Positions 2 to 48,821 of a DNA stretch of 64,000 nucleotides are shown in pieces. The notes beneath the pieces were generated by a model. It did no database searches, had not been told where the DNA came from, and worked only from the letters and a program-made list of their open reading frames with translations. The first letter of the stretch is position 1. The number at the start of each line of letters is the position of its first letter. Both the position numbers and the translations under genes were made by a program. Source of the stretch: Naegleria gruberi (taxonomy: Eukaryota); the NCBI GenBank assembly GCA_000004985.1, contig GG738913.1. The stretch is one strand, 5' to 3'.

Positions 2-3000
2 GTGATTAGACGAGTTTATCAAGATGTGGTCAATACGGTGGTTGGTTCTGGAAATTCTGGTTTCTCTGCTGATGGATCCTTTGCTACTATTGCACAAATT
101 AACAAACCAAAAAGTATTTGCATTACCAGTGATGAGGATATCATTTTCATTGACAGTGGAAATAACAGAATACGAAAGGTGCTTCACTCCAATGAAACTT
201 TGATAACCATTTCTGGACAGAATACTTCCTTCAAAGCACCTTTCACAACTCCCATTCAATACTCTCAATTATACAATCCAACGAGGATAAAACTATATGA
301 GAACAAGACAATCATCACCGAATCAACAATTGTAAGACAAGTGGTGAATGGAGTAATTTCAATTGTAGCAGGTGTATATGGTAGCTTTGGAGTTGCACAA
401 GAAGGTGCTTTGGCAACAAGCTCCTATTTGAGCTTTCCTAGAAGTGCTGCATTAGATCTTAATGGCAATATTCTCATAGCTGATTTCAATAATGGTAAAA
501 TCAAATTAATTACCAATAGCAAATCGTACACCTTTGCTGGAAGTAAGGCGACCTTTGGTCAAGAAAATGTGATTGGAACGGCCACAAGATTGTATAATGG
601 ATGTGGTTTCTCCTACTATAATGGAGAATTCTATTGGAATGATAGTGGAAATTGCAGAGTTCTCAAATTGGGAACTGATGGAATAGTTAGAAGAATTGCT
701 GGCATAACAGGTATATGTGGCTTTTCAGGGGATGGTGGTTTGGCCACCAATGCTCTAATGGGAGTTTCATGGGGATTGAGTGTCTCACCAAGTGGTGATA
801 TTTATGTTGCTGAATCTATTAATTCTAGAATAAGAAAGATTTCGAATGGTATCATTACAACTGTTGCTGGAACATCAGTGGCTGGATACAATGGAGATGA
901 TATTGCTGCCACAAGTGCAAGCCTTAATGGCCCTCCTGCAGTCTTTGCTACCAGCACTGCATACTATTTGGCTGATGCTGGAAACCGTAGAGTTAGAAAA
1001 GTTTCATACAGCACTGGAATAATTACAACCATTGCTGGAAATGGAGCTAGTGGATCTTCTGAGGAGAATATTAATGCCACAAGTGCAATTATTGGTACAA
1101 GCTCCCCAAGAGCTCTTTGGGTTAGCAATGACGATTCTGTCTATTATGCAGATGTTTCAAATGGAAAGACAAGAGTTGTAACTAATGGAATAGTTTCGAC
1201 CATCGCTGGAACTGGAGTGTTGGGCTATTCAGGAGATGGTGGTTTGGCAACCAATGCCAATTTTAGATGGATATATGGCTTGTGGATGGTTGGTTCTGAC
1301 TTATATATTGCTGACAGTACTAATAATGTTATAAGAAAGCTGTCGAATAATATTGTAACCACAGTGGCAGGAACTGGAAATGCTAACTTCAATGGAGATG
1401 GTATACCAGCTCTCTCTGCAAATATTAACACTGCCAATCAAGTAATTATTCATCCACAAACATCTGAAATGTTCATTCTCTCATCAGATAGAATCAGAAA
1501 GGTCAACACCAATGGCACCATTTCCACAGTGGTTGGAGGTATTGGTGATGGGGCTCAGGCCATATATGCACTCATTAATCCAACAGATATTCATGTCACC
1601 AATAATGGTACAATCTATCTCACAGATTCATTAAATCATTGCATTAGAATGATTACAAGTGATGGAGTTATTTCACTTGTTGCTGGTTCTTACTATGGTG
1701 GTTTTGGAGGTGATAATGGACCTGCTGCTAACGCTGTTTTGAATAGTCCAGAATCTCTATTTGTAAATTCGAAGGGTGAAATTTACGTTTCAGATACAGT
1801 CAACCATCGAGTAAGAAAAATTGATTTGAATGGAACCATTACCACAGTTGCTGGGAGTGGTTTGGCTGGTTTCTATGGAGATGGTGGATTGGCTACAAAT
1901 GCTAAATTGAGTTATCCTATGGGAATTTACGTATCCAAAAATGGTGACATTTATATTGCTGATTATGGCAATCATAGAATTCGAAAGGTTTTCAGTAATG
2001 GAACAATCACCACTATAGCTGGAACTGGAAGCATAAATTATAATGGAGATATTCAGGAGGCAACTTTAACAACTCTTAATTCACCAAGAGGAGTTTACAT
2101 GTCACCAAATGAAGATGAAATTTACATTGCCGATTCGGGAAATAACTTGATTAGAAAAATCAAACTTGATTGTCCATCAGATTATGAATTGGACAAGAGA
2201 TTGGGAGAGTGTGTGCAAATTGTCAAGTGTTTTGGTATTTTGGCCACCGACAACTCAGTTTGTTCTGGAAATGGACAATGTGTCGATGGAAGCTGTATCT
2301 GTAACAACCAAACCTTTACAGGGCCTAACTGCTCTAGTATCACTTGTTTTGGAAAAGTACCTTCAGATTTGATGGTTTGTAGTGGAAATGGTCAATGCGT
2401 TACAGCAAATAATTGCTCATGCCTTTCTGGTTATGTTGGGAATGAATGTCAAGCGAATCTGAATCCATTCTCCATCGAATTGTTGAGAAATGAAACTATT
2501 TCCAATAATTATAGTTATCAGATTAAGGATAATGGATTGAATATGACAAATTATTATTGGACATGCCAGAATTGGGATCCAAATATTTCAATTTCAACAA
2601 GTGGAAGGAATGCATTCGTAACTTTCAGTTCAGCTTACTCTAAAGTGTATCTGTTGTCGGTTTATGCTTCAATTCCCAATTTCAGCCCATATCCTCCAAG
2701 AATTTCGAATACTATCCTGTTCACTATTATTTCCCCTAATGTTACCATTCAGCCAAGTTTCAATCAAACAACCAATGAAACTCTACAAAATAACCAGACA
2801 GTGAACTCAAACCAAACAACAAACAATTCATCCATTCCCGTTCAAAATAATCAAACAATAGCAAACGAAACATCCACTAATTCAAACAGTACTGATACCA
2901 AAAGCGTTAATATTTCAGGAAAGTTGGGAGTTTTTGGTCTTCCCTCGGTTTTGGTTTCAAAACAGATTGACGTTTCAGCAGTAATTTCTAATATTTCACT

Positions 3001-6000
3001 GAACCAAACTTCTATCAATTCGTTCCTATCATGCACTCCTAATTGTACATTAAAAATTTCATATGAATGGAAAATCAATATTGATAACAACCAAGCAGCC
3101 AATCAAACTGGTTTTACCACTTCCATTTCTTTAGGTAATAATTTGATGAGCTTTAATCCACCAATTCAAATCCAATTCAGTACAAGTAATGTAAAAGGAG
3201 AGAAATTCACACTTTCCCTTGCCCTTTTTTCAAACAATGGAAATATTTCATCGAGTACAAGTATGGATATCGTTACCCCAGTCCAACCACCAACAGCATC
3301 TAATTCCACAACTTCAAAATCATCAAATTATTTAATGAGTGTCAATCCAGAGAAGGGAGTTGCCCTGAGTGACTCATTTTCAGTTAGTGTCGCATCATGG
3401 AATGCACCATCACAAATTCTTCCTCTCAAATATGCTATTGGATTTGTTTCTAATGGAAAGGACGTGAGATTTACAGATTATGCACAAACTACTTTGTTCA
3501 ATATTTACCTTCCTTACTTGATCCAACAATCCAGGGGTCAAGTTTCAGAAATTCAACTCTATCTCTATGTTATGGATGCAATTGGAAATGTTGTAACATC
3601 TCCAACTGGACTCTCCATTTCAGTTTCTCCTTTTAATGGAACTTCTAGTGAATTGGTCCAAAAAATCAACGAGCTTGGCACTACTTCACTAGTAGTTGCA
3701 TCCTATGATAAATCCTATACAGTTCTCTCAAGTAGTGGAGGAAATTCAAGTGAGTTAGTGTATGAAATTGTGAAAAATATTCAAATTGATCCAAAGAATC
3801 CAGAAACTGCCCTCACATCCATCACCAGTCTTACATCCACTACGAGTGTAATTAATGAAAATATTGTGAGTGAAGTAGCAAGTAAGATCACCTCGTTTGT
3901 TGATAATGTGAAAGATATCTATGCATACGAAAAGAGAGTATATGGATTTGTCAAAAGCAAGGTTTCACCTGACAATATTCTCTCTACTGTGACTATTACT
4001 TCCAACCTATTAGCAAGTGGAGTTGATAGCGAGAAAACTGTTGGCGTAGTTGATAATGTTGCCTCAATGGTATTGTTAGCAGAAATTCCAAAACTTCTCA
4101 CAAGCTCTGAAAAGCTCCAATACATCTCATTCACAACTGGTATGGTGAATATTACAGTTTCTAGTTTCAAGATGACCTCTCCAATAGAGGGTAATCAACT
4201 AATCGAGGAGGAGAACAATAAGGTATCTGCAAATTTGACAAGTATCATGATGGAATATGGAACCTTAAATAAGGAGTGTGGTCTATCGATGGTCTCCTAC
4301 ACAAAGAACATGAAGTTTGACAATTACACATCAAATACTATTCATGCTTCGAGTATTAACGATTTCAAATTCATTCAAGAGCAAAATATTGTACGACTCG
4401 ATAATCTCGAGCATCCAATTGTGCTATCATTCAAATTATCTCATATTCCACAACAAAACAGTTCAGTAAATTCCACATTCTCCTGCAGATATTGGGATGA
4501 AACTAATAAGATATGGAGCGATAGAGGTTGTCAACTTTCCAATATTGACCTGAATGCTGGCACAGTAGAATGTTCATGCAGCCATACTACAATGTTCACA
4601 ACATTTGTAGAACAAAAGACTACCAGTATTATGATAGCAATGAAAGAAGAAGTTGCAACATTATATTTTGTACAAATAGCTCTTGGTGCTGTTTATACTA
4701 TTGTTGCTTTGGTAATTATTACTGGTTTGATAATATTGAGAAAGGAGCAACCAGTAACAAGTAGACTTATCACCCCATATGTAGGAATGGTGGCTCTCAT
4801 TGCAGAGAGTGTGTTGATTTACATTGTCCAAAGAAGTGTCCTTGTGAGTCAGCTCCTTTCCACAACAGATCCCAAAGTATGGGAAGTTGGTGATAATGCT
4901 GCCAATATTATTGCAAACAGTGTTGCCATTGTTGTGAATACTTTGAATTTGACTGCTACATTGTGCTATGTGATGCAAGTTTCCAGATTCCAATTCCTTA
5001 AACATTTGTACAAGCTCTTGTCCGATAATAGATCAGATATGGCAAAGAATGCCAAGATTTTGAAAGTCCTCAAATTGATAACCTCTCAGAAAATATTCTT
5101 TTCAATTATTGCAATCTTTGCCGTGTTGAATGTTTGTTTCTGGACTCTTTGGGTTGTTCTAGTAAGGACACAAGTCATTGATGCCTCTACCTATACCTAT
5201 ATTGTATCATCTTGTTACATTACTTGTATTCTCTTCTTTGGAGCAGTTATTTGCATTGTAGCCATTGCTGATTGGATTATTTCCACCAAGAAACACGTAA
5301 CAGCAGGTCAGGAAAGAAAGAGAAAGACTGTCAGTTTCACCACTCTCAGCTCTGAACCACGAGAATCCATCAAGAAGCGACTCTTCTCTCCAAAACAACT
5401 CTACGAATGGTTAATTCAAGTTGATGAACCACTCTATTTCCGATTCGAAATGCTCCTCTACATGATTTGCTTTGTCTTCCAAGTGTTAAATCTTGCCATT
5501 GGCTCCTCCAGTCTTTCCTACCGATATGCTGACTTGGATTCATACAAGAAAGCACTTGCTCTCGATGGAATCTCCTTCATCTTTGAAGTACTCTATGTGG
5601 TGAGTTACTTGTTTGTGTTTGGTGGTTTTGCTCTCTTGATTGCCATATTGTACAAGTACAAGAAGAAGAAACAACATGATGAAGCCTCTACTTTTCTCAT
5701 CAACAAATTGAATGGTGGCAACAATAACAAGGTCGACGAAGGAATCATGAGTGAGGAGATGAGGGATGTGCTAGATAAGAACGAAGGCTATCTATTATTC
5801 GAAGCCTTCTGTGAGAAGGAATTCTCTCTAGAAAACCTCTACTTGTACTCTGACTTGAAAGCCAATGAAACCATCACCAAAGGAAGACAATTCACCAACC
5901 TAACAACCTTCATGAGATTCATCTTTAATAACTACATCCGAACAGGAAGCACCACAGAAGTGAATATACCAGCCAAGTGTAGGAATAACTTTTTACTTGT

Positions 6001-6412
6001 CTATAAGAATGTAGCATCAAGTAGTGAACATATGCAACAACAATTGGGAATTGCTGAGAAGGTGAGTAGGAGTGAGGTGGAAAGACTCGATAGGAATCTA
6101 CAGGTGGTTATCAAGAATGATCAAGTAGCTACTTTATCAACTAAAACAACAACTACAACTTCTACTAATGAACAACAACAACAAGAAGGAAATATCAAAT
6201 CTTCATCGCCAGTAGCTGCTGTAGAAAATGTTGATCATGTGGTGGAGGGTGTTGTTTCTGCCTTTGAATTCCTCTACAAGCAAACATTGGTTAATTTGGG
6301 TGATACCTTCTCTCGATTTGTCTTTACGAGTGAATACAAGGAATATTTGGCTTCATTGGAGGCTCAGAAGGTTGTTACGGTGGAAATTATTGCTGCCTAC
6401 GGAGATGTTTAA
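2..6412 (+). CDS. 5'-truncated adhesion-GPCR-like receptor: N-terminal NHL-type beta-propeller repeats, tandem EGF-like modules, Ser/Thr/Asn-rich stalk, GPS/GAIN motif, 7TM core, C-terminal RGS domain
   Basis: Uninterrupted 2136-codon ORF running from the window edge. Repeated ~45-aa units (IAGTG..G.SGDGGLATNA.L..P.GI.VS..GDIYIADS.NHRIRKV) fit NHL repeats. Cys-rich CxxGxC blocks (CSGNGQCVDGSCICN..) fit EGF-like modules. CRYWDETNKIWSDRGC...VECSCSHTTMF fits the GPS consensus (C-x-C-x-H-x-T). Seven hydrophobic helices follow between aa ~1560 and 1890. The tail carries an RGS-like signature (LLFEAFCEKEFSLENLYLYSDL...FIFNNYIRTGS). Stop TAA at 6410-6412. Confidence 0.8.
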   Translation: MIRRVYQDVVNTVVGSGNSGFSADGSFATIAQINKPKSICITSDEDIIFIDSGNNRIRKVLHSNETLITISGQNTSFKAPFTTPIQYSQLYNPTRIKLYENKTIITESTIVRQVVNGVISIVAGVYGSFGVAQEGALATSSYLSFPRSAALDLNGNILIADFNNGKIKLITNSKSYTFAGSKATFGQENVIGTATRLYNGCGFSYYNGEFYWNDSGNCRVLKLGTDGIVRRIAGITGICGFSGDGGLATNALMGVSWGLSVSPSGDIYVAESINSRIRKISNGIITTVAGTSVAGYNGDDIAATSASLNGPPAVFATSTAYYLADAGNRRVRKVSYSTGIITTIAGNGASGSSEENINATSAIIGTSSPRALWVSNDDSVYYADVSNGKTRVVTNGIVSTIAGTGVLGYSGDGGLATNANFRWIYGLWMVGSDLYIADSTNNVIRKLSNNIVTTVAGTGNANFNGDGIPALSANINTANQVIIHPQTSEMFILSSDRIRKVNTNGTISTVVGGIGDGAQAIYALINPTDIHVTNNGTIYLTDSLNHCIRMITSDGVISLVAGSYYGGFGGDNGPAANAVLNSPESLFVNSKGEIYVSDTVNHRVRKIDLNGTITTVAGSGLAGFYGDGGLATNAKLSYPMGIYVSKNGDIYIADYGNHRIRKVFSNGTITTIAGTGSINYNGDIQEATLTTLNSPRGVYMSPNEDEIYIADSGNNLIRKIKLDCPSDYELDKRLGECVQIVKCFGILATDNSVCSGNGQCVDGSCICNNQTFTGPNCSSITCFGKVPSDLMVCSGNGQCVTANNCSCLSGYVGNECQANLNPFSIELLRNETISNNYSYQIKDNGLNMTNYYWTCQNWDPNISISTSGRNAFVTFSSAYSKVYLLSVYASIPNFSPYPPRISNTILFTIISPNVTIQPSFNQTTNETLQNNQTVNSNQTTNNSSIPVQNNQTIANETSTNSNSTDTKSVNISGKLGVFGLPSVLVSKQIDVSAVISNISLNQTSINSFLSCTPNCTLKISYEWKINIDNNQAANQTGFTTSISLGNNLMSFNPPIQIQFSTSNVKGEKFTLSLALFSNNGNISSSTSMDIVTPVQPPTASNSTTSKSSNYLMSVNPEKGVALSDSFSVSVASWNAPSQILPLKYAIGFVSNGKDVRFTDYAQTTLFNIYLPYLIQQSRGQVSEIQLYLYVMDAIGNVVTSPTGLSISVSPFNGTSSELVQKINELGTTSLVVASYDKSYTVLSSSGGNSSELVYEIVKNIQIDPKNPETALTSITSLTSTTSVINENIVSEVASKITSFVDNVKDIYAYEKRVYGFVKSKVSPDNILSTVTITSNLLASGVDSEKTVGVVDNVASMVLLAEIPKLLTSSEKLQYISFTTGMVNITVSSFKMTSPIEGNQLIEEENNKVSANLTSIMMEYGTLNKECGLSMVSYTKNMKFDNYTSNTIHASSINDFKFIQEQNIVRLDNLEHPIVLSFKLSHIPQQNSSVNSTFSCRYWDETNKIWSDRGCQLSNIDLNAGTVECSCSHTTMFTTFVEQKTTSIMIAMKEEVATLYFVQIALGAVYTIVALVIITGLIILRKEQPVTSRLITPYVGMVALIAESVLIYIVQRSVLVSQLLSTTDPKVWEVGDNAANIIANSVAIVVNTLNLTATLCYVMQVSRFQFLKHLYKLLSDNRSDMAKNAKILKVLKLITSQKIFFSIIAIFAVLNVCFWTLWVVLVRTQVIDASTYTYIVSSCYITCILFFGAVICIVAIADWIISTKKHVTAGQERKRKTVSFTTLSSEPRESIKKRLFSPKQLYEWLIQVDEPLYFRFEMLLYMICFVFQVLNLAIGSSSLSYRYADLDSYKKALALDGISFIFEVLYVVSYLFVFGGFALLIAILYKYKKKKQHDEASTFLINKLNGGNNNKVDEGIMSEEMRDVLDKNEGYLLFEAFCEKEFSLENLYLYSDLKANETITKGRQFTNLTTFMRFIFNNYIRTGSTTEVNIPAKCRNNFLLVYKNVASSSEHMQQQLGIAEKVSRSEVERLDRNLQVVIKNDQVATLSTKTTTTTSTNEQQQQEGNIKSSSPVAAVENVDHVVEGVVSAFEFLYKQTLVNLGDTFSRFVFTSEYKEYLASLEAQKVVTVEIIAAYGDV

Positions 6413-7097: not shown

Positions 7098-8571
7098 TTA
7101 TTGAGCTGGTTTATTTGATCTTAGAGGAGACTTGGAAGCTGTAGTTGTCTTTCTAACACCCAAAACTGAGGAAGGTGTTGAACCAGTTGATCTCTTTGTT
7201 GGTGAGCTTGCTTTGGTTGTTGTAGTTGTTGTCGAAGACTTTTTAGTTGGAGAAGAGGATGGTGACCTAGTGACTGATGTTGGTTTCTTTACTCCCAAAC
7301 TTGAGGATGGAGTTGTTGTAGTTCTTGTTTTGGTTGGTGAGACAGATTTGGTGACTGTTTTAGAGACTGTTGGTTGACTTGATACAGTTGTGGTAGGCTT
7401 GGTTGTTGCAGTAGTTGACGAACAAGAGCTACCTTCCTTTGCAATTAAATTCTTAATTGCTGTTTCCAATTCCTTTTGGCTAAATCCTTCAAGACGCTTT
7501 GATTCCTTTCCATGGTGGAAGAGCTTGAACGTTGGTAAGCAGCTAATACGTTCCTTAGAAGTGATAGAGTAGAGTTTTGATGTATCTACTTTGATAAATT
7601 TAACTTTTTGATTACTGAAAGCTAATTTGCTGTATGGAGTTGCACAAGCAACACAAGCTCCACAATTATCTCCATAATAATCTGCAACAACTAGAGAATT
7701 ATCCTTGAGTACGTGATTATATTCCTCCTCACTCTTGACATAGGTAACAAATTCATCACTCGATCCAGCCAACATGTCCTTCTTCAAATATTCCTCAGAT
7801 GGAGAATCAAAGTGTAATAAGCATTCCTCCATTTCATAAGAAGATCCACCAATTACAGTTTCCTTCATTTTTCCATTGTAGAAAAAGACAAATGTTGGCA
7901 TTGCATGAACATCACATTTAGACATGATCTTTCTATGTTCATCCACATTGACTTTCATAAAGGTGACATCTGTATGTTTGGCAGCTAAACTCTCAACATA
8001 TGGAGTGATAGCCTTACAAGGACTATTAAAGGTACATTAATAAAAAGGAAAGTCAAACAGAAACATACCCACACCAATCAGCATAGAAATCAACTACAAC
8101 TTTGGTTTTAGATTTGATTGTATCATCAAAATCTTTTTCCTTAACAATATGAAGGATTCCATTTTCGTAAAATGGTGGTTCAAGTTGCTTTGCTAACATG
8201 TCAGCATTTCTTGATACAATGGATTCACAAAGACCATCCAACTTTTGAACAACTTCTCCTTGGGAAATAAAGAGAAAGGTCGGAAGACACTTGGCTCCAT
8301 ATTCATCAGCAATGCCACTAAAATTATTAATATCCACCTTAGCAAAATTAACCTTTGGTTTTTCAGAGGCCAATCCCTCATAATTAGCATCATAGTCTCT
8401 GCAAACACCACAATAAGGTGATGAAAAGTAAACTACAACTGATGGATTTTTAGCGATCAAACTACGAAACTCTTCTTCGGATTGAATCTTTGTAAAATTG
8501 GTCATTTCTATTGATTTATTACTCTCTATAGATTTTAATATACAACAATGCAGTATTAGAAAAAAGATCAA
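7098..8571 (-). CDS. protein with three thioredoxin-like domains (CGVC, WCGPC, CGAC motifs) and a Ser/Thr/Pro-rich mucin-like C-terminal tail; one 46-nt intron (8023-8068)
   Basis: The two minus-strand ORFs 8053-8571 and 7098-7958 join through GTATGT...TTTAATAG (donor at 8068, acceptor at 8023). Splicing recreates ...DFYADWCG|PCKAITPYVESLAAKHTDVTFMKVNVDE...AMPTFVFFYNGK, a canonical thioredoxin active site and C-terminal motif. Upstream domain has YCGVC...LPTFLF; downstream domain has DNCGACVACA...LPTFKLF. Start may be the Met at 8505 rather than 8571. Confidence 0.8.
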
Positions 8572-9732: not shown

Positions 9733-12700
9733 TTATTTATCATTACTTGGACTGACAGGAGTGGCAGCAGTGACACCAATAGAACCAAAGCCACCAACAT
9801 CAATCTTCAAGAAGGATTTACTCTTCTTATCGTCATTTTCCAATCTCTTTTCAATCCATCCAATAATTTCAGTATTATCACTTTGAATGGCAAGTTGTAA
9901 AGCTTGTTCAAGTGAGACAGCTCCAATTTCACACAAATACTTGACAACATTCAATTGAACACGTTTGATGGCCATTTCCAAAGGTGAAACTCCATTCAAT
10001 GTCTTGATAGCACTAATGTCAACTTTCAATGGTGAATCAGCTGCTGGAGCGAATTTACCATGGTAATTTCCATTTTCAACTAATAATTTAACAACGTTTG
10101 GATGTCCATAACCAGCTGCAAAGTGGAGTGGAGTCAATTGTTTGTCTTCTCTTGTGTTGATGACTACTGAACAGTCACAACCCTTTTCAATGAGATATTG
10201 AGCACAGTCAACTCTGCCACTGATAGCACACAAGATAATTGGTCTCATTTGCAAGTCGTGTCTAGATTGATCAACTGAAACATTGTACTTTTCAACAAGC
10301 AACTTGACAGCATCCAAATTACCATTCTTAGTAGCAGCATGAATTGGTGGATAGGAATTTTCAGTGTACGATTCTTCATAACTTCCACAAGGATCCAATT
10401 TAACTTCATCAATCAAATATTCAATAACACTGACATTTCCTCCATAAGCAGCAGCTGAAAGAATTGTTTCGGCTCCCTCTGTAACAGCACCACTGTTAGC
10501 ACCCTTTTCAATGAGCTTCTTGACAAGCTCAACTTGAGAATTTTGAGCAGCAAAATAAAGTAATGATTGACCCAAACTATTGGAGAAGTTCAAAATGTTT
10601 TCCTCAGATGGGTTTTCAAGAGCTGTTTGAACAATCTTGGCACCGACGTGTCCTGGCAAATCCTTACATTGAACAGCAAGGAAAATTGGTAAATCCTTTC
10701 CACCAGAACGCTTTTGACAGTCAACTCCATGGTCAACCAAGAAAGAAGCAGCAGGTGGGCAGTGCAACATGCAATTGTGGAGAGCAGTATATTCTACAGA
10801 GTCAGCAGCACGTTTTTCACTTTCATTGACAAGATTGGTCAATTCTTCACTTGTCAACAAGTTAGCATTCAAAATTAATGGAATGGCATTCATGTTCTTT
10901 GCTCTGATAGCCAAATGCAAGAAGGTTGATGAAGAGTGCATTCCAGAAACAGTGCTACCAATATCGAAACGAGAGAGGGCAAACTTTGGAACTTTGGAGA
11001 AGAGAGTCTTCAAGATGACTTGACATTTTTCCAAACAGAATTCATCATGGAATTGAATTCCAGAAATTACAAATTCAATCAAGAGATTTCTCAAATTTTC
11101 CTTCACTTCACCATCAGAATTATCATCAGATGGTGGAGCAATGAATTCAGAAGCCAATTCTTGTAAGTGGGTTTCAATGGCTTCAGTAGTGACCAATCCA
11201 ATAGATCCTGTTTGAGTATTATCACCAATGATACTCTTTCCAATTGAAAGCCACTTGGTCACGAGTGGATTATTATTAATGGTGAAGAGAACAGATTGAT
11301 TTGCTGTTGAGCTAGTTGGAGCCAATGGATTGGAAGGTGCATTCTTGTAACCTGGAGTGGCTAATCTTTCATTGAAAGAGTTCAACAAGGTAGCATTCAT
11401 CAACTTTCTAGTATTTGAACCAATCAATGAAACCAACATTGCAAATGGACTCATCTTGCCATACTTTTTCAATTCTTCCAATTTAATATTACCATACTTG
11501 GAAGCTTCACTTTCTGTAATCTTGTCAACATTTCGTTTAGTTCTAAAGAACAAATTACCACCTCCTCTCTTGAGCAAAATCTCCAACATTCTTCCATTTT
11601 GATTGTAAATGGCATAGTGCATTGGTGTCCAACCAGCATCATTCTCAACATCAACTTGAGCATCTTCATAAACCAATTTTGTAACCAAATCAAATTCATT
11701 TTCACGAGCACACAAATTCAATGCAGTAAATCCACCATTCTTATCAATTTGATTAATGTTAATCTTACTTTCCTTCTTCTTTTCCAAGATCATACTCAAT
11801 AATTCTTCACGTGGTTTCAATTGACCTCCAGAACGTGGTGAAATGCCACGAGGAGACATTCCTCCAGATCTAGGTGAAATGGATGAACTAAATTCAGCTG
11901 TACCAGAAGTATTTAAACTCAATCCAGGAATATCACTTGCAAGTGTTGAGCTAGCAGTTGCTGTCGAAGAATTTTTACTGTCAGCAAGTGTCAAATCTCT
12001 TGAAATGGCAATGAAATGCAAAGCAGTTTGATCCAAACGATTCTTCTTATTAAAATCAACCCCATTATCCAACAAGAACTTGGTCAATTTCAAATCCTGA
12101 TTCTTCACAGCAATATGCAATAAAGAATCCTTGTCAACATAACCCATTTGTGTCAATTGTCTAATTTCTTCACTTGTCAAATATTGTTCATCTTCTTCAT
12201 CATCTGATAAATCTTCTTCTCTCAATCCAGGAGCAATTGTCATTCCTCTTGATGAAGGAGTTTTTGGAGTATCTTCTTTCGAATAATGTAAATAAGCTAA
12301 TTTCGAATATTCTCCATTACCAATCAAACTACGAACGTCAGTAAAGGAATGTTGTTCGATCAATTTTACAACTTTGAGATGAAGTTGAGTTTGAGAAGAT
12401 TTCAATTCGTCAATTACGTTTTCAATGGCGTTCATCCATTCTTTACGTTGTTCTTGATTTTCGGCTGAGAACCAATAGGTGAAAGTGGTTGGGGAGTCTT
12501 CAGATTGGTTATTTGATCCTTCCTCATTGGAAGGAGCTGTTGTTTTTAAACCAAAGGTGTTTTCTATTGTTATTCGAAAGTAAAATTAATATTCGAAAAA
12601 AGGTAAAATGATCGAATAATGTGATGATTACTTACGGAAACCTTTGTGATTTTCAATATCTACAATAGTAGAAAAACGAGTTAATGGAATCTTTTCTTCA

Positions 12701-14573: not shown

Positions 14574-17500
14574 CTATTGGAGAACCTTTTTACAAGTTTG
14601 ATATATATTATCCAAACTTTCTGCCATGTGTGATGAATCTGTTGTTCTGGAAATATTGCAAATTTCTCTCAGGGTTTGTTCATATCTCAATAATTGTGCC
14701 CTCATGGACTGATTTTCAAACCTCAAAGCATCCATTGTTGAACTTTTCAATTGTAATAATCCTTTCAATAGATCGACATGTGTAAAATGTTTGGTCGGCT
14801 CCTTTAGAATTTCTAATAGATTATTCATAATTTTGAGATAATGAATACATTCTCCTCTGTGTGTTGAACGAGATTGGATCATTGTAATTAAACACCTTCC
14901 AAGAATATCATTGAATAGCACCTTTTCCAAAAAAGAATTAGGATGGGAGCAAATAACCTCAAGATTTGGATCTATAAACTTGTCAATTTCCTTTCTAATA
15001 GATTGATGAAGCATGGCCTCTCCTTGTGGAGTACTTAATAACTTGAAAAAGTAATTTTTTCCAACTCCAAATAAACAAGATGAACCAGAATCTTCATTCG
15101 TTGATATAATACTCAATGTTCTGTTGCAGATCATTTTCATTAAGACACATCCCATTGAGTAAGTGTCACAATTCTTTGAGATTTTGAAATTTTCCGTTTG
15201 TTTGCCTTCTTCCTCATCATAAACCTCTGGAGCAAGATATTACCATGTCCCTATATTCACTGATATTGAGTGGTTGGATTGAATAACTTTGGAATTGTCA
15301 AAATCAATGAGTTTGGCATGTCCTTCATTGTTGATTATTACATTTGCCAACTTTAAATCTGTACAAAATTTCAGTATTGATTTTGAAAACAATAAACATA
15401 CCTCTGTGTGTGAAATTTAGATTATGCAAACTGATGACACCCTCAAGAACTTCAGTAAAGTACTGTAAAACTTCAATCAAATCTTGAGTGGATAAGCAAT
15501 GCTCCAAATTTAAATAATTTTGGTGCATTTCTGACATTACATGATCCAAAGGAGATCCCATTTCCATAATTAAATAGCTATACTTGCTATTATGCAACTC
15601 ATAAAAATTACATTCAAATGTTTTGACAATACCCTTCAAATTTGGTGTTTTCTGCATTTAAAGTTGTGAGTTAATGGAGTATGAGGTAGGAGACTTTTTA
15701 CGGGCAATTTTTCAACAATTTCTTCAATCCTACCGTCTCTAACATATTGATAGAGTTGAAATAGAAATTGAACATCCTCTCTAAGTTGTTCGGTCTCTAG
15801 GACGTAATTTAAAATCTGTTTGTTCTCATAAAGTTTGTTAATTTTTACACAGTCCAAAATTAGTTCAGTATCCAATTTTTTAGTCGAGTAGAGGATGGCC
15901 AATCCAAAAGTTTTGGTAGCTGTCAAGATAATATTTGAATCGCTTTGTAGGGAATTTGATGCAAATTTCAAAAGTTCACCTTTTTTCTCAATGAGTGGAG
16001 TGATAAGATTCTTTCCATACTTGAATTTTTCAGAGGCGAATTGAATGGAAAGTGGATTTTGAGCAATCGCCATCTGAACTATTTGTAAATCCTCTTTGAA
16101 AATACCTGGAACTATTTCAAGAAGCAATCCGTTCCTTTCTACATATTCCAATATCTTCATTTTGTCGTTTTTCAATTCTCTAGAAGCATATTCGAAAGAA
16201 TAATAGTTTTGAGAAACTGCAAGATCAACTATTGTAGGATTATTCCTCAATCTTTCAGATGCATACTTTAAAGATAGTCCTCTCGATTTTACAGCAATAG
16301 AAACGAGACTTTCATCATCCTGAAAGGAGTTTGGAAGAAATTCCAAAGCATATCCATTAAATTCGAGCAACTCCTTCATTGTTTCAATGCTTACAGTATT
16401 CCAATCTGTAAATTTTTGGAGAAGCATTACATTTCTTTCTGTCAATTCTTTTACAGACATATTTTCCTTCATTTCCAAGTTTAAATAAGAAAATTCCTGT
16501 TTCATCAAGAAATTAATAAACACCTGCAGTGCTGGGCAATCAGTTTTGATTCGAATAAAGTGTTCTAAATAATCCATGCCATGGATTATGTTATTTTTCG
16601 TAACCTTGTTACCAATACCGCCTCTACTAGTTTCACTTTGAGGAAATACCAAAGCCAATAGAAAATAGTATTGAACGGCCATTTCTGATGTTGTTATGGC
16701 TACTGCCTTCATATCATCAATCAACTTTTCAATAATTTCAAAAGTATAACTTTGTGAAAGGTTGTTGATATATCTGAAAACGATATCGACTCCCAAAATT
16801 GTTAGATTTGAAATCATACTTCTTATACTGGAACGATAGTCCATTGCTAGGAACCAGTAATTAATGTTCTTCCAATAAATTTCCTTTAACAATTCCAAAT
16901 TACAACAATTTCTTGATTTCTGTTGAAACATTTTCTTGAAACAAAACTCAATTAATTCAAAATCTTTTTCATCTTGAGTAGTTTCTACAAATTCTCTAAA
17001 AATACTGAAAGATTTGTTAAGGTTACGAATTGACTGATTGTAATATGTTTGTAAGAGCATTGCTTTAAATCTTAAAGTTGCTTCCTTGGATAGTATTTGA
17101 CTAATTACACCATTTTCGTCCAACAACATGCTGCATTCCGTGAGAGAGCAATAGCAATGTAGATCTTTTGATTCTTTAACTAGCATCAATGCATCAAGAA
17201 TATCTAGTTGTGTTACATGGGAAATAAAAATGAAATTGTCAATAGATATTCTTTCGTTAATAGAAATGACCTCTTGCGGTAGGTTTCGAATGCTCTTTTG
17301 TCTAAGATTCAACAATTTAAGCAGACTGGGACCAAAATATTTACCTTCATCATCGTACACAATTCCTGAATCACGAAATTGTTTCTTAGCTGATCCATCA
17401 CTATTAAATAAAATTGAGGAATATTGAGAGTGGACCAAACCTTTAGTCAGCACAATATAATTCTTTTCATCTAACATCATGAGTTCTCTAATGTCATATC

Positions 17501-18614
17501 CAAAATCCAATGGATCTGTATTTGTTTCATAATCCATTAATAAATTGAATGCTTGATGAATTTTATCATCCATGATAAATTGAAAAGCTTTTTGAATTAT
17601 TGAATGATCTTTTTTGGTTGGAATCTTAATATTTGGATGTGTGAATTTCATAACAATTTGAGTAGTAGACTTGTAATTAGTGATTCCTTCGATAGTTACA
17701 AATAGTCCATGAATGGTTTCTTGAATATTAGTGAATTTTGTTTGTTTCAATTTTGAACCTTCTTGGTGTTGGCTCATTAATTCTTCTACAGTCAATGTCT
17801 GAAATAAATCAACACTTTTGTCTTTGTTAATATTGTAAAATTGTAATGTTTTTCCATCATGTGAAATACAGGAAGCTAATATTGGTTGACAAATTGAAAT
17901 TCTCTTAAAAAAATAACCATTAAAAGTGATATCATTCTTTTCAATATTTGAAATCAATTGAGCAACAACTTGAATCTCTGTCTTTCCATTTCTAATATCG
18001 GCTTCATCTCCATTCAACACAATCTCTTTCAAAATTGTTTCGGTTTTGTAATCATACACTACATACACATTCCTAAATCTCAATACCATACTATTTGCGA
18101 GAAAAATCAATGAATCACATCTTTTAGATTCAAATTTCTCCAAATTAAATCTTTTTTCAAAAGATAGAAATAAAAAAGTCACTGGTAATTTTCTGTAAAC
18201 TGTAAATCGAAATTCCTTTCCCCAAACAATACAAAAAGAATCGTCTAAACTTTGTAAAGGAATTCTTCTTGTACAAGAAATCAATTCTCCTGTTTCTTTC
18301 TTTTGGAAAATGGAATTTCTTTCCTTTAGTGTAAAATCCAAATCAGATCCAGTCTTCTGGAATGCGTTACCCTCAAATTTAATTGTCAGCTCTTTTCCTA
18401 AAGCTGAAAAACTGTAAGAAAAGAGTTGTACAATAGAATTCACACCTTCACCTTGTAAACTTTTATCAATTACTGTTGAGTAATGAACAAGCAACATTCC
18501 TTTTTCTTCATGACATTCAATTTTTTGAATGGAACAAGTTTCGGGTGAATTTTCTTGGAATAAATGTTGGTGGTGAAAACTTACCACAAAATAATTCCCA
18601 AATTTGTTCCACAA
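14574..18614 (-). CDS. large protein with DUF4116-like repeats and a C-terminal Ser/Thr protein-kinase domain; 43-nt intron 15359-15401; in-frame TAA at 15240-15242 inside the kinase domain (possible pseudogene or sequence error); possible extra 5' exon 18615-18663
   Basis: 992-aa ORF plus downstream ORFs share one frame after removing GTATGT...TGTACAG (15401-15359). This gives ...LHNLNFTHR|DLKLANVIINNEGHAKLIDFDNS (HRDLK catalytic loop, DFD = DFG). Then ...NIGTW*YLAPEVYDEEE: the APE motif follows an in-frame TAA. The N-terminal half contains repeats of the DUF4116 style (...ALEFLPNSFQDDESLVSIAVKSRGLSLKYASERLRNN...). An upstream ATG at 18663 with a GTAAGT 31-nt candidate intron would add MARLLVQPLIQNISKLFVEQIWELFC. 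Confidence 0.7.
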
Positions 18615-19495
18615 ATAACTTGCTGATATTTTGAATCAAAGGTTGAACAAGTAATCGAGCCATGTTGTGCGGAATCAAAGTGAAAACATTGGCAAGTTTT
18701 CATTAGTGGACCTGATGTCATTTTTTACTAATAATTACAACGCGGTCATGTTTAAAAAATCTTATTTTTGGTTCACAGTTTGGAATTTATTTTTCATGTG
18801 ATGAACACCAAATTGTGAAAGATCTGATTCAGGAAAACAGTCCTTCGAACTGAATTCAATGAACCCAATTCGAGTGAATTCAGATGCCTGCCCAACAGGT
18901 TATGGAATTACAATTGAGGCGACAATGTTACGGCAATTTCCTCTAAAAGGAGAGGTTATGGAGTCGTAAAAGAACTCTCAAATTGCCAGAGACCTCTACA
19001 AGATCTTGATGAGAAGAAAATGGTCGATTTCAAAGGAGAACAATTATGCAGTCGTTTAACATCCCAAGAACTACTTGATTTAGTTCAGACAGAATTTGGA
19101 GAACACTCTATGGACGGATTCGTGAATTAACCACAACAATTCAGTTCAACTCATGGATAGAGAACGACACATTCTTGAATCCTTGGGAACAAAATCTAAC
19201 GAGTTATTGTGTTCCTCCTTTGGGCTAATTTCTCAAGCTCTAGTTCACTGCATAAAGTCAGAACCCCCCGACAGTTCCAACAGTTGTTTCTTTTACAATA
19301 TCTCTATATTAGATATTGCAAAAGAAACAACTATTCCAAACTAATCATTTTGGTCAAGTTTTGCTTCTGATTATTGATGATATTGATTAATAGACCAAAC
19401 TGGAAACCGATTCTGAAACTAATTTCCCTGAACGCCGTAAAATCTGTTATCCGAAACTCACGAATGTCAAGTAACCATTCAACATCCGTTAAAAA

Positions 19496-22031
19496 ATGTC
19501 GCAACTTGATGTCAGCTCACATAATGCAAGAGATTCGTCTATTCCACTCCGTGCTACTACTTCTACCCTTCTAAAACAATCAACACTCGAGCAATCGTGT
19601 GAGAAAGTAAACGAAAGTTCATTAATCATTGAAACATTTCCTTCCCAACATTCTATTGGAAATCAAACACGAAAGGTTCATTCTCCACGTTCAGATCAAA
19701 CTCTTTCCGAAGAAGAAACAAATTCCATCATTTTGGAAATGAAAGAAATGGACGAAATGTTTCGAACAAACAAGAAGAAATCGAAATTTGCACATCTTTA
19801 TCAATCAAATAAGAAACAAGGTTTAAATCAATCGTTTGCCACATCAGAAAAGTTTAGTTCATCATCCCATAATGAAAATTTATGTGCATCTTGTTGTGGA
19901 ACTTTACGTTGGTCAACTGTCATGATTTTGACAGCTGTCTTTTCGATAATGATACTTTTATTTGTTGCAATCATTTCCTCGATTATTGTTACGAGTTATG
20001 ATGAGTTGGAAAGAGGAAATTCCAAAGCAGATATGAAAAGAGTTGTCAAAAGTTTTTATGATGAATTTGTGAATTCATTGGAGGTATGTTTGACTTTTGA
20101 CAATGAGTTTTAATTGAAATTTTGGATAGATTATGCAAGCAGTTGCTGTTTGGGATGAGCCTTATAAATTATTTCAAAGATATTATGATCCATCAGAAAA
20201 TCAAACTGAACTGGCAGTTGACATGCAACTTTTTTTGGAAACTAATATTGATTCAGCTCAAATGTTGTTGGAAAAACACAACTATGCGCTGTTCTATACC
20301 TTGAATGGAACTTTAATTGCAAGTAGAGCTCACAATCTTATAGACGAAAGTCAAGATTTATCCGATTTGTCAAAAATTCCAAAAGAATTATTGGAATTGA
20401 ATGTAAATTCGAATCCTCTTTTCAGAAATGCAGATAAAGCTGGAACTTCGAATGGTGGTTTCCTTAAAGTTTCGAATGGCGTAGTAGAAAATAGCAAAAT
20501 TGTCATGTTAGTGGCGAAACCAGTTTCTCCAAGTAATTTCAATGAAAATAATCCAACTTCTGGATTGATAGTGTATGGTAGACATGTCACTTATCAAACT
20601 AAGGAAAGAAATGTGTTTAGAGCTTCTACATGTGTTAGTTTTTTGAATTTTGACGAAACTTTACAAAAATATTCGAATGTTAATGCTACGAGAGTTTCAG
20701 TAACAAGTAATATTTGGGAGAATGATCAAGTTTTATCCATTGATATGTATGACGACCTCTCTAGTAGAAACTCTCTCGATGATCGTCATTGCTATTCGAA
20801 ATCTGAACTAAACTCAACTTCCCCTCGAGTTGGTTCCATTCAATTCCTTGCCGATCTCAATGGAAACCCAATCCTAGCCATCCGATCCGATACTGAACGA
20901 AACATTTACCTCCTAGGAGTTCGTTCCTTAGCCCTCTCCATTGCCTTACTAGTTTTTTCATGTATTATTGCAGCCATTGTAATCATTGCCTTTGTGGAGA
21001 GGCGAGTATTGAGGAGAATGTTTAAACTTTCAAGGAGAATTCAGGAAATTACAGCATCACATGATCCTAAACAGAGAATTGAAATTGGTCGAGGAGGAAA
21101 CTCAATTAATGCCTCGGAAAGAAATTTGATTTTTGATGAAATTGACACGACGGCGAAATATATTAATGAAATGTTGACTAGTTTGGATATTGTATTGGAA
21201 GAGCAGTTGAAGGAACAGAAAATGTTAAGAAAACTATTGGAAAGAGTGTACACAGCAGAGGAATCAGGAAGTGCCATTATGAATGCTGTGAAAGATGTCG
21301 TGTTTATTGTGAATGGAGATAGTGGACTAGTTCTGAATGCAAATAACAAGTTTTATGAACAGATGGAGAGGAGTGTGATGGAAGTGGAGGCAAAGGATCA
21401 AGTTTATGTTTCGAATTTGTTTTTGGAAATGAAATCACTCGAAGCCAAATTTCAGAATAATTTGAGAACTGCCTTACTCTCCCTTAATGATGGAAAATCG
21501 CATCTTTTCAGAGGAATGACTCCATCTGGTAAAATTATTAGATACAATGTATTCATTTCCAAAACAAAAGTCATGCAAAATAACGAGAAGGTCATTTCAT
21601 TCCTATTTATGGCAAAGAAGGACGATTCACTTTCTTTAGGAATTGACCAAGAAATCATTAATGAAAAATTTGAGAAAATGATTAATAATACGAAAAAGAG
21701 AAGAAAATTCCAGAAATTCTGCTCAGAAAAAGGTCAACTCTACAATTTCAAGTTTATTAGAGAAGTAAGGGATTACAAAACAACGGAACTTCCAATTGAC
21801 CGAGCAAGGAAACAATCTGAAATTTGTTCCAACTTTTTGAGGAAAGATTCTCCATTCCCATTGAATATTGGAGCAATTGATTTGATTAAGGGAGAAATTG
21901 AAAAGATTCTAAAAGAAGAAACACCTCAAATTTCCTTATTTGATGGATTGAATGATATTTTGGAAAGTATTTTGAAATCAGAAGTTTTTACACTTTACAA
22001 AATTCAAAAATCAAATCTTCTCTACACATAA
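19496..22031 (+). CDS. two-TM receptor-like protein with ~330-aa extracytoplasmic domain and C-terminal RGS domain; intron 20084-20129 (46 nt)
   Basis: Exon 1 ends ...SLE at GAG|GTATGT. Acceptor GATAG at 20129. Exon 2 continues in frame (IMQAVAVWDE...). TM1 is VMILTAVFSIMILLFVAIISSIIV and TM2 is IYLLGVRSLALSIALLVFSCIIAAIVIIAFV. The C-terminus has an RGS-like block (FQKFCSEKGQLYNFKFIREVRDYK...FLRKDSPFPLNIGAI...). Confidence 0.75.
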
Positions 22032-42584: not shown

Positions 42585-44673
42585 TTATTGAATGAAACAT
42601 TTCTTCTTTTCATCATCAATTTCCGAATCAAATTGTGAATCTTCATCAGCACCACCACTCTTTGATTGCTTCTTCTTCAATCTCTTTCTATATTTTTCCA
42701 TCTTTTTTTCATATTCCTCAACTTGTTTAAAGTATGAATCTGGTGGCCATTTGTTTTCAGTAACATGTTTCAGATTTTCACCTGTCAAAAGTTCCCATTC
42801 CCTTCTTGCTTTCATTGGACCATAATTTGTAGAGATGAAATGGAGACAAAAGTTGGCCAATTGATTGGCTTCATAAGTTTGAGCTAGTAATAGTAGACCT
42901 ATAATGTCAATGTCAGCTTTTTCAATTCCTTGAGCAACTGATTTGTCAATATTTTTCGAGATGAAAATTTCACACATTGAGGTCAATCCAGACATGCCAT
43001 ATTCGTTGGCCAAGCTCAACAATCCAACAGCATTTCTTTCATTGATGGTAGAGTGAGCAGAGTACAGATATTCGAATAGGGCGTGGAATTCACTTATTCT
43101 ATTCTCATTCTCACCAATTTCACCACTCAAATCTACTTGCCTTGATGAGTGCTCTACGAAATTGCCCTCAAACATTGTTCTGAATACATCACAATTAGCA
43201 GAGAGGAATAGTTTGTGTCCCTGAAAATTCTTGGAAGAATCAGTTGTGGAAAAGACAATTTCGACATCGGAGTGAGTTTTCTTATCAAAGTACTTTTTCT
43301 TAATTTCACTACCCAATAGATCATTAAGATAGGTTTCAATACTTTCATTGAACACATCTTCCTCTCCTCTCTGGTAATTACTGACTATATTGTCAGTGTA
43401 TTCACATTCAAAGATGGTAGATGCAATCTTGACCTTATTGAGAAATTGATCTTTTTTACACCTTTCCAGCATAGTTTCCGATCCTCCATAATATTGGATT
43501 TCCAATAGGGATTTGAAAGCCCTATGATGAATAGTGTTGGAGAGTCTGAATTTCAATATATTCGGCTCATTCTCATCAATAGAGACAGATGAGAAACCAC
43601 TCACTCTACCTCCATTAATTTTGGCACTCAATTTTTCAAATGCTTCATGTGAATAGCTATTCATTCCAGCATCTCTACACACCAATACGTCATCGAATAA
43701 TTTTCTAATAACTTTGGAGGGAACACAAGCCAACACCAATGAATGGGCCTTAATTTCCACATCAATGTCCTTAGTGGAATTGTAAATAACAAACTTGGTA
43801 TCACAGCAAAAATCACTATCCAGAAGGTTTTTAAAACCCTTGCCATAATTTGAGCTTTCCACATAAATCCAAGGAGCTTTACCAGCTGGAGGCATTACAG
43901 GAGGAGTTGGTTCAATATCTTCAGAGTTTCCAATCACTACCTTCTTTCTTCCTTTTTTTGAAGATTTGGACTCGTCAATTGCTTGTGAAATTGCCAAATT
44001 GAAGAGTTTATCAATATTGTACATGGTTCTAGAGCTTGTAACAATGGATCCTGAAGCAGGTGAGTTCTGTACCATTTGCTCAATCATTTCCTGAGTGATT
44101 ATTGAGTCACGATCCGCATCAGAGACAAGATCACTCTTACACCCAACCAATATGATCTATTTGAATAGAAAGGGAATATTAAATGAATACATTGGTATAT
44201 GGAATGGTCAACTTACTGGAATATCAGGACAGTGATGAATCAATTCTGGAATCCATTTTGATTTGACATTTGCAAATGAAGCTCGATTGACCATTGAAAA
44301 ACTGAATCATTTTGTTAGAGAAATAACCACTGAAAAACATACCAAACAAAGAAGACATCAGTTCCTGGATATGAAAGAGGTCTCAATCTGTCATAATCTA
44401 GTCAATTGTCAAATTGTCACAATTATTAACAACAATTTCAACATACCTTCTTGACCAGCAGTATCCCACAATCCAACATTATAATTTCTATTTCCATATG
44501 TCACATTAGCACTCTTCCGAAATCAATTTAACTGTCATCAAATTACTTACGTAATTGTCAAAAACTGTTGGAACATAATCTTCGGGAAATGAATTTGTGG
44601 TGGAGGCAATCAAAAGACAACTCTTTCCGACGGCGCCATCACCAACAACTACCAATTTCAAGCTATTGTCCAT
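42585..44673 (-). CDS. RhoBTB-like protein (N-terminal Rho-family GTPase domain + two BTB/POZ domains), copy 1; multi-exon; GTPase region contains an apparent +1 frameshift and an in-frame TGA around 44290-44340
   Basis: Exon 1 (44673-44551) encodes [41 protein letters not shown], then GTAAGT. Exon 2 (44513-44447) encodes [22 protein letters not shown]. After a 49-nt intron, exon 3 encodes [18 protein letters not shown].., but continuing to ...[40 protein letters not shown] needs a frame shift and crosses a TGA. A 59-nt intron then leads into the intact 521-aa ORF ([13 protein letters not shown]...), with BTB 1 (FCCDTKFVI...[21 protein letters not shown]) and BTB 2 ([10 protein letters not shown]...[21 protein letters not shown]). 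Confidence 0.65.
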
Positions 44674-47829: not shown

Positions 47830-48360
47830 TTCAATAAGTGGTCCTTTTTCAAGATTTCATCCTATTCGTCATAGTTGAAGAAGTGTGATTGAGGGAAGAA
47901 ATCTTTAAATATGAAAGTTAAAATAAATTTGATGTTCGATGTATACTCACCAAATGGAACATTTTCATGTCAGGATTCAATATGTTTTGATGAGAAACTC
48001 AAAAGTTATAGTTGACCTATTTTACTTCACAACTTCCCTTTTCACTTCATACTTTTATATCTACAGACTTGAACTTTTGAAATTTCATATGAAAGTGATT
48101 ATAAATGTTGTTAATGGTGATATAGACTATATAATCTCATTAAAGGATTTTGAAATTATCATTCTTCCTATAGTTTCATTTATGAAATTTTAATCTGACA
48201 TTATTTACAAAGTTAATATTTTATAAATTGAAAAACTAAATATACCACGTTGTTCTACTCATCATTTCCTATCGAATGATATAAAATTTAATGATATTTG
48301 AATAAGTTTATAATTTTGGGCTAGGGTTTGAAGGTTGGGTTTAGAATAATTCTATTTTTA
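47830..48360. repeat. telomere-associated sequence (TAS) copy 1, ~530 bp, immediately proximal to the (GGGTTT)n array
   Basis: Near-identical to 63160-63720 (catcaggttggtaaagtttcaataagtggtcctttttcaagatttcatcct ... gggctagggtttgaaggttgggtttagaa). Both copies are directly followed by GGGTTT hexamers. Confidence 0.85.
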
Positions 48361-48771
48361 GAATTGGGTTTGGGTTTGGGTTTGGGTTTGGGTTTGGGTT
48401 TGGGTTTGGGTTTGGGTTTGGGTTTGGGTTTGGGTTTGGGTTTGGGTTTGGGTTTGGGTTTGGGTTTGGGTTTGGGTTTGGGTTTGGGTTTGGGTTTGGG
48501 TTTGGGTTTGGGTTTGGGTTTGGGTTTGGGTTTGGGTTTGGGTTTGGGTTTGGGTTTGGGTTTGGGTTTGGGTTTGGGTTTGGGTTTGGGTTTGGGTTTG
48601 GGTTTGGGTTTGGGTTTGGGTTTGGGTTTGGGTTTGGGTTTGGGTTTGGGTTTGGGTTTGGGTTTGGGTTTGGGTTTGGGTTTGGGTTTGGGTTTGGGTT
48701 TGGGTTTGGGTTTGGGTTTGGGTTTGGGTTTGGGTTTGGCCCTGGGTTTGGGTTTGGGTTTGGGTTTGGGT
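48361..48771 (+). repeat. internal array of ~68 telomere-like hexamers (GGGTTT)n, G-rich strand on +, ending in an N-gap; one variant unit (GGCCCT) near 48739
   Basis: Perfect tandem GGGTTT from 48361 to 48771, then 50 N. Translation as GLGL.../PKPK... in the ORF track is an artefact. Confidence 0.9.
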
Positions 48772-48821
48772 NNNNNNNNNNNNNNNNNNNNNNNNNNNNN
48801 NNNNNNNNNNNNNNNNNNNNN

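Follow-up and report, generated by a model that had tools for sequence, protein, structure and literature searches.

A Naegleria gruberi receptor with an adhesion-type ectodomain, a GAIN/GPS module, seven transmembrane segments and a C-terminal RGS domain

Locus, gene identity and domain order

A 64,000-nucleotide stretch of Naegleria gruberi contig GG738913.1 (assembly GCA_000004985.1), referred to here as the window, begins inside a long open reading frame (ORF) on the + strand. The ORF is open at the 5′ edge of the window and runs from nucleotide (nt) 2 to a TAA stop at 6410–6412, giving 2136 codons. From the letters alone, a first-pass annotation had read it as one intronless polypeptide that joins an ectodomain of the adhesion G-protein-coupled receptor (GPCR) type, carrying NHL, EGF and GPS elements, to a seven-transmembrane (7TM) core and an RGS domain. 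In an exhaustive profile search the ORF was matched to P0006, a protein of 2442 amino acids (aa), which is N. gruberi NEG-M XP_002670636.1 (EFC37892.1, UniProt D2VZ75), annotated as 'predicted protein NAEGRDRAFT_74387' and uncharacterised. The two are identical at 2135 of 2136 positions without gaps and differ solely in the artificial first codon. Across the whole ORF the public gene model is one uninterrupted coding region. The N-terminus missing from the window could also be recovered from the public protein: its 306 additional residues start with the signal-peptide-like sequence MSALKQVKIAALLLNLLIISWCLNVFGA and continue into further NHL blades. Literature searches with the locus tag and accessions retrieved no paper. 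The features of the ORF are given below, with aa numbered from its first codon.

2..6412, + strand: C-terminal 2136 codons and stop of NAEGRDRAFT_74387; the first 306 codons fall outside the window
2..2161, + strand: NHL beta-propeller blades, aa 1–720 (Pfam TEN_NHL 139.5 bits, 1.7e-40; NHL 132.2 bits, 1.9e-39; motif count)
2249..2455, + strand: two teneurin-type EGF domains, aa 750–818 (EGF_2 31.7 bits, 2e-7; EGF_Teneurin 30.6 bits, 3.4e-7)
2996..3673, + strand: REJ domain, aa 999–1224 (Pfam PF02010 34 bits, cut-off 25, E 1.7e-8, isolated segment)
3746..4618, + strand: GAIN domain, aa ~1249–1539 (AlphaFold2 model, predicted local distance difference test score (pLDDT) mostly 80–92; Foldseek)
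4481..4600, + strand: GPS motif, aa 1494–1533 (Pfam GPS PF01825 26.9–29 bits, cut-off 22.5)
4583..4618, + strand: putative autoproteolysis site H1528-T1529 / T1530 and peptide TMFTTFVEQK (family conservation)
4643..5707, + strand: 7TM GPCR-fold core, aa ~1548–1902 (seven hydrophobic segments; AlphaFold2 helices)
5729..6400, + strand: RGS domain, aa ~1910–2133 (Pfam RGS PF00615 31–34 bits, cut-off 23.9, aa 1921–2003)

The full-length protein carries, in order, a signal peptide, NHL propellers, two EGF domains, REJ, GAIN/GPS, a GPCR-fold 7TM bundle and a cytoplasmic RGS domain. The signal peptide lies outside, and the seven transmembrane (TM) segments have basic cytoplasmic loops, which place the RGS domain inside the cell; an N-out/C-in topology is thus shown. 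The ORF encodes a real N. gruberi surface receptor with an adhesion-type outer part, GAIN/GPS, 7TM and RGS, and the domain observation is confirmed far beyond chance.

The NHL and EGF domains proposed for the ectodomain were recovered above the curated Pfam cut-offs, at 132–140 bits for NHL/TEN_NHL and 31–32 bits for EGF. The NHL/TEN_NHL match is split over six separately scored stretches. The blade motif D-x-x-N-x-(I/V)-(R/K)-K-(I/V) was counted 11 times in the window and at least 14 times in the full-length protein, enough for more than one propeller. The REJ domain, like the helical half of the GAIN domain, had been overlooked in the first-pass annotation. It was found only when a 283-aa segment (nt 2852–3700, aa 951–1233) was scanned alone; queries of 2136 aa and 700 aa missed it. 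REJ is also above cut-off in the matching region of the homologs P0001, P0003 and P0005. The linker ahead of it (aa ~905–965) is rich in N, S and T and has many N-glycosylation sequons. The REJ case indicates that whole-protein scans can miss domains in long, compositionally biased protist proteins.

Relatives and continuity of the reading frame

Family members were collected by an exhaustive HMMER search with a GPS+7TM profile, and representatives were taken at 50% clustering. This search replaced one made with the long-alignment A1 profile in a word-indexed database, in which 2 matches were obtained as against 5 with a single sequence. The GPS+7TM profile found 352 representatives at E<1e-3 and 77 at E<1e-30. 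Named members come from N. gruberi, N. fowleri (P0007, P0060), N. lovaniensis and Willaertia magna, with profile matches of 100–690 bits, and many lower-scoring representatives are unlabelled metagenome contigs. Weak matches limited to the GPS and TM1 are animal and amoebozoan proteins, and the short GPS-less 7TM-RGS proteins P0111 and P0137 match the TM1–TM4 part of the profile. No plant protein is among the profile matches listed. A catfish protein of 2020 aa (P0082, Tachysurus vachellii XP_060742127.1) matches the GPS portion of the profile in 8 separate stretches, a tandem GPS-like array.

Retrieval gave 151 sequences, 74 of which match nearly the full GPS+7TM profile; a local hidden Markov model (HMM) search found the RGS tail in all 74. 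The outer parts differ. Long EGF arrays are present in all four relatives scanned at full length (P0007, P0008, P0010, P0013), and NHL together with EGF in P0013 only; ectodomains are shuffled within the family.

The joining of an adhesion gene and an adjacent TM-RGS gene into one ORF, whether fortuitous or due to an assembly error, was considered as an explanation of the architecture. The window is a gapped draft scaffold with 11 runs of N (27426–62902, the largest 51023–53849), and the closest named relative, from N. lovaniensis, is annotated as two adjacent genes on one 663-kb contig, C9374_004465 (P0005) and C9374_004464 (P0002). However, every run of N lies beyond nt 27,000, and nt 2–6409 contain neither a run of N nor a stop. 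In N. lovaniensis the break falls inside the 7TM region, P0005 stopping in TM1 and P0002 beginning before TM3. Since this is not a domain border, it is the N. lovaniensis split that appears to be the artefact, probably a mis-annotation caused by a missed intron or frameshift rather than a real split. The protein P0001, from an independent Logan contig, is continuous, and more than 70 other representatives are unbroken from GPS to RGS. Together with the public model, identical to the ORF along its length, and the RGS tail in every complete GPS+7TM representative, these results make a chance fusion very improbable and bear out the single polypeptide first proposed.

The N. fowleri cluster P0060/P0156 likewise includes two neighbouring models, FDP41_008291/008292. 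The closest Logan contig, L001, showed no synteny, and its downstream neighbours differ. P0001 and the N. lovaniensis pair 004465/004464 are probably paralogues or rearranged orthologues in which an EGF array replaces NHL.

GAIN/GPS module, membrane core and RGS domain

The region aa 1201–2136 was modelled with AlphaFold2 from 30 aligned family members (mean pLDDT 78). In the model the GAIN domain consists of a helical subdomain A and a beta-sandwich subdomain B, and the last strand is a Stachel-like peptide after His-Thr-Thr. Foldseek comparison of the GAIN domain with the PDB returned BAI3 (4dlo, 1.9e-9), BAI2, latrophilin-1 and -3, CELSR1, GPR126 and GPR56, with E between 1e-9 and 1e-4 overall and between 1e-9 and 1e-7 for BAI3, BAI2, latrophilin, CELSR1 and GPR126; inactive full-length CD97 was matched at 4.4e-9 across 762 columns. 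The sequence CSCSHTTMF, on which the GPS had originally been called, lies at aa 1524–1532, and the call is upheld by both Pfam and the GAIN fold. The motif keeps the four cysteines and two tryptophans (C-RYW-x7-W-x3-GC-x13-C-S-C-S-H-T-T). A GPS profile match to the GPS of ADGRF1 (E 2.8e-4) aligns C-S-C-S-H-T-T-M-F-T-T-F with C-Q-C-T-H-L-T-S-F-S-I-L.

A sequence that would represent the tethered peptide is TMFTTFVEQKTTS. In a 50-sequence family alignment T1530, F1532 and F1535 are each at least 95% conserved. The pattern C-x-C-x-H-(T/A)-T-x-F-x-x-(F/M) is present in 70 of the 74 full GPS+7TM members, with His(-2) and Thr(+1) kept.

Hydropathy analysis gave exactly seven strongly hydrophobic segments, aa 1550–1886, all between the GPS and the RGS domain, as expected from the 7TM core first described. 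The putative C-terminal fragment (aa 1530–1905), modelled with AlphaFold2 from 50 aligned sequences, forms seven long helices (pLDDT 91.4, predicted TM-score 0.88), and the first intracellular loop (ICL1) is only ~9 residues long. Conservation from the 50-sequence alignment was combined with the helix positions of the models. The best-conserved positions are the tethered peptide and the cytoplasmic face, and the extracellular loops are variable. On the cytoplasmic face the conserved elements are QPxxSR 1583–1588 in ICL1, R1662/Y1670 at the end of TM3, D1757 in TM5, L-x-F-R-x-E 1811–1816 with invariant F1813-R1814 at the start of TM6, and F-G-G 1873–1875 in TM7.

The membrane core could be assigned to a fold and to no sequence family. 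Pfam 7TM families (7tm_1/2/3, Dicty_CAR, Frizzled and others) gave no match at E<=10 in four members, on which ground a core of class B2, the secretin-adhesion type (7tm_2, PF00002), was rejected. In a PDB profile search adhesion GPCRs were matched through the GPS only, not through the 7TM region. Structural comparison of the core scored GABA-B2 18.9, GPR156 18.1, several class A receptors 17.9, Frizzled-1 17.2 and GIPR 16.7, with no adhesion GPCR in the best 60 matches. Foldseek of the core returned the same mixture of receptors, all with E > 0.05. Class B1 matches of the 7TM region, seen in a multi-domain Foldseek run, did not survive the clean test of the core. The core has a GPCR fold, belongs by sequence to no described family and is not class B. 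The description 'adhesion-GPCR type' therefore fits the GAIN/GPS module; for the membrane core, which has neither a 7tm_2 or Dicty_CAR Pfam match nor a class B preference, it is not demonstrated.

The RGS assignment, made at first from the motif FEAFCEKEFSLENLYLYSDL and its flanking helical pattern, gained firmer ground. The motif is found at ~aa 1932–1952, and the GPS and RGS matches both exceed the Pfam gathering cut-offs; their absence had been named in the first-pass annotation as an outcome that would refute it. Foldseek matched the RGS tail to RGS16, RGS8 and RGS4 at probability ~1, and a four-sequence family profile matched RGS16 at 6e-9 and RGS4 at 5e-7. In the AlphaFold2 model the domain is split by a low-confidence T/Q-rich insert of ~30–90 aa (aa ~2010–2085). 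The motifs that contact G-alpha are kept: EFSLEN (S1942/E1944/N1945), EVN (N1988) and DTFSRF (D2101/R2105) align to EFSEEN, EVN and DSYPRF of RGS16. We take these to be the equivalents of S85/E87/N88, N128 and D163/R167 of RGS4 in its complex with Gi-alpha1 (Tesmer et al. 1997). As judged by this alignment, the RGS box is shown to keep the canonical G-alpha-contact residues.

Known systems, proposed function and neighbouring genes

Receptors of this kind are known from a related species. According to Bosch, Jeck & Siderovski (J Biol Chem 2022, PMC9283941), the N. fowleri genome encodes 28 expressed '7TM RGS' proteins, several of them with GPS motifs, and Nf 7TM RGS1–4 carry EGF-like repeats and lectin or carbohydrate-binding domains. 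Recombinant RGS domains of such proteins bind the transition state of Naegleria G-alpha and speed GTP hydrolysis, an activity documented for Nf 7TM RGS2/3/4, and G-alpha5/7 of N. fowleri are self-activating through spontaneous nucleotide exchange (PMC9283941). The same paper explicitly likens the N. fowleri proteins to adhesion GPCRs and to AtRGS1. Profile matches show that the 7TM-RGS core of XP_002670636.1 is homologous to the Naegleria 7TM RGS members, and the resemblance is that of a genus-level family with seven TM segments and a C-terminal RGS domain, a subset of which has a GPS and an EGF-rich or lectin ectodomain. XP_002670636.1, a paralogue or orthologue from N. gruberi, differs in that NHL propellers dominate its ectodomain. 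GTPase-activating protein (GAP) activity has been measured in the N. fowleri relatives, whereas for the N. gruberi protein the evidence is the conservation of contact residues. The GPS-bearing 7TM-RGS architecture is therefore already published, XP_002670636.1 is an uncharacterised N. gruberi member of that family, and the 'unusual architecture' claimed at first is outdated. PMC9283941 makes no mention of N. gruberi members, NHL, REJ, polycystin, a full GAIN fold or a tethered peptide, and no paper was found that pairs 'GAIN domain' with Naegleria. The REJ and full GAIN module, the family-wide H-T/T-x-F-x-x-F strand, the RGS domain in every GPS-7TM member and the GPCR-fold but non-class-B core appear to be undescribed.

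With metazoan adhesion GPCRs (class B2; latrophilin/ADGRL, BAI/ADGRB, ADGRF1, CD97) the protein shares a large adhesion ectodomain, a complete GAIN domain, the 4-Cys/2-Trp GPS, His at -2 and Thr at +1, and a hydrophobic T-x-F-x-x-(F/L) strand directly before TM1. It differs from them in having no 7tm_2 match, Thr instead of Leu at P-1, a fused cytoplasmic RGS domain and no HormR.

In the polycystin-1/PKDREJ family the juxtamembrane hallmark is a REJ domain followed directly by GAIN/GPS. The N. gruberi protein resembles polycystin-1, PKDREJ and the sea-urchin REJ proteins in this order of REJ, then GAIN/GPS, beside the membrane. It could accordingly be read as a polycystin-1-like adhesion or mechanosensory protein, in which the REJ-GAIN part and the TM bundle would serve adhesion or regulate a channel and the RGS domain would be a scaffold or localisation element, as in GRKs, axin and sorting nexins. 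The large insert in the RGS box would suit such a role. However, the protein has 7 TM segments and not 11, an RGS domain in place of a coiled-coil tail, no channel-like region and an ICL1 of only ~9 residues, and the Pfam scan gave no match to PLAT, PKD_channel or PKD repeats. Moreover, its RGS box keeps the Asn, Ser/Glu/Asn and Asp/Arg contacts that RGS-homology scaffolds usually lack, and the relatives have measured GAP activity. These points make the polycystin-like explanation quite improbable.

De Mendoza et al. (2014, PMC3971589) showed a wide distribution of 7TM-RGS architectures among bikonts, chytrids, filastereans and ichthyosporeans. Arabidopsis AtRGS1 and the other 7TM-RGS proteins of plants, Trichomonas, chytrids and filastereans (PMC3971589) share with the N. 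gruberi protein the 7TM region followed by a C-terminal RGS domain and the presumed logic of a receptor-regulated GAP for a self-activating G-alpha. AtRGS1 has only a short N-terminus and no GAIN/GPS.

Taken together, the protein is best read as a member of the heterolobosean '7TM RGS' family that acts as a receptor-GAP in the plasma membrane and would hold a (partly self-activating) G-alpha off until the ectodomain is engaged; we put the probability of this reading at about 0.6. At rest, the membrane-anchored RGS domain would keep nearby G-alpha in the GDP-bound state. A surface, a particle, prey or a carbohydrate ligand would engage the NHL/EGF/REJ ectodomain, and the GAIN domain would pass the change on to the 7TM bundle. 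In this step the conserved T-x-F-x-x-F tethered peptide may be exposed by force once autoproteolysis at H-T/T has taken place. Rearrangement of the conserved cytoplasmic face would then alter the access of the RGS domain to G-alpha, or would trigger removal or internalisation of the receptor as with AtRGS1. The outcome would be a local build-up of G-alpha-GTP. That the GAIN/tethered-peptide switch of animal adhesion GPCRs and polycystin-1 works here on a non-class-B 7TM bundle, with a fused GAP rather than a guanine nucleotide exchange factor (GEF) as its output, is a tentative extension of this reading and on balance doubtful.

The first-pass annotation had suggested a self-regulating receptor-GAP, which is read here as GEF and GAP in one chain. 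In such a bifunctional protein the 7TM core would be a true GEF activated by the tethered peptide, and the fused RGS domain would end or sharpen the same signal as a built-in kinetic scaffold. The core, however, has no sequence similarity to GPCR families with demonstrated GEF activity. To our knowledge AtRGS1, the best-studied 7TM-RGS protein, has no demonstrated GEF activity, which also speaks against a GEF. Self-regulation in this sense is hypothetical; published work points rather to a receptor that serves purely as a GAP on self-activating G-alpha, and the bifunctional scheme is considered unlikely.

Several points weigh against the receptor-GAP reading and its proposed trigger. P-1 of the GPS is Thr, in a few members Ala, and since it is not the canonical Leu, autoproteolysis is unproven. 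The tethered peptide, a candidate for docking in the 7TM pocket, has pLDDT ~80 in the model of the C-terminal fragment. The RGS box is interrupted by a long insert that may affect its function. Even for N. fowleri, the link from a change in the 7TM region to GAP activity is left open in the discussion of PMC9283941. The literature holds no experiment on XP_002670636.1 or on any N. gruberi member.

Naegleria has few conventional GPCRs and makes heavy use of 7TM-RGS receptors, together with G-alpha that is partly self-activating, so these proteins are probably its main sensors of surfaces, prey and hosts. The N. fowleri 7TM-RGS proteins have been proposed as drug targets. If the proposed switch is true, the family would be the first 'tethered-agonist-controlled receptor-GAP', and REJ-GAIN-Stachel would be a mechanosensory or adhesion trigger that is ancient and portable, having been combined with different membrane cores. 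N. gruberi is non-pathogenic and tractable, and its member of the family offers a clean test case for GAIN autoproteolysis and for regulation of a GAP by a tethered peptide, and it bears on the age of the GAIN-7TM partnership outside animals.

Elsewhere in the window, the listed 'ORFs' at 50058–53873 (−), 50997–53888 (+) and 51007–53862 (+) cross a 2.8-kb run of N and are artefacts. Five ORFs of 532–798 aa (22107–24503, 32612–34933, 35357–36955, 37173–38807, 48328–50031) gave no Pfam match at E<=1e-3. The following neighbours are all on the − strand.

7098..7958, − strand: double-thioredoxin gene
9733..12435, − strand: ankyrin-repeat gene
15636..18614, − strand: DUF4116-repeat gene
42585..44150, − strand: BTB-domain gene

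At 19493–22031 (+), 13 kb downstream, there is another receptor-like RGS gene. Its 632-aa ORF (20133–22031, +) carries CHASE4 (28.8 bits, aa 2–153), one TM helix LALSIALLVFSCIIAAIVIIAFV and a C-terminal RGS domain (37.7 bits) by Pfam. An ORF fragment in another frame (19493–20110) ends in a TM helix and looks like exon 1 before a short intron. Because CHASE4 occurs mainly in bacteria, as an extracellular sensor domain, the CHASE4-TM-RGS pairing is unusual.

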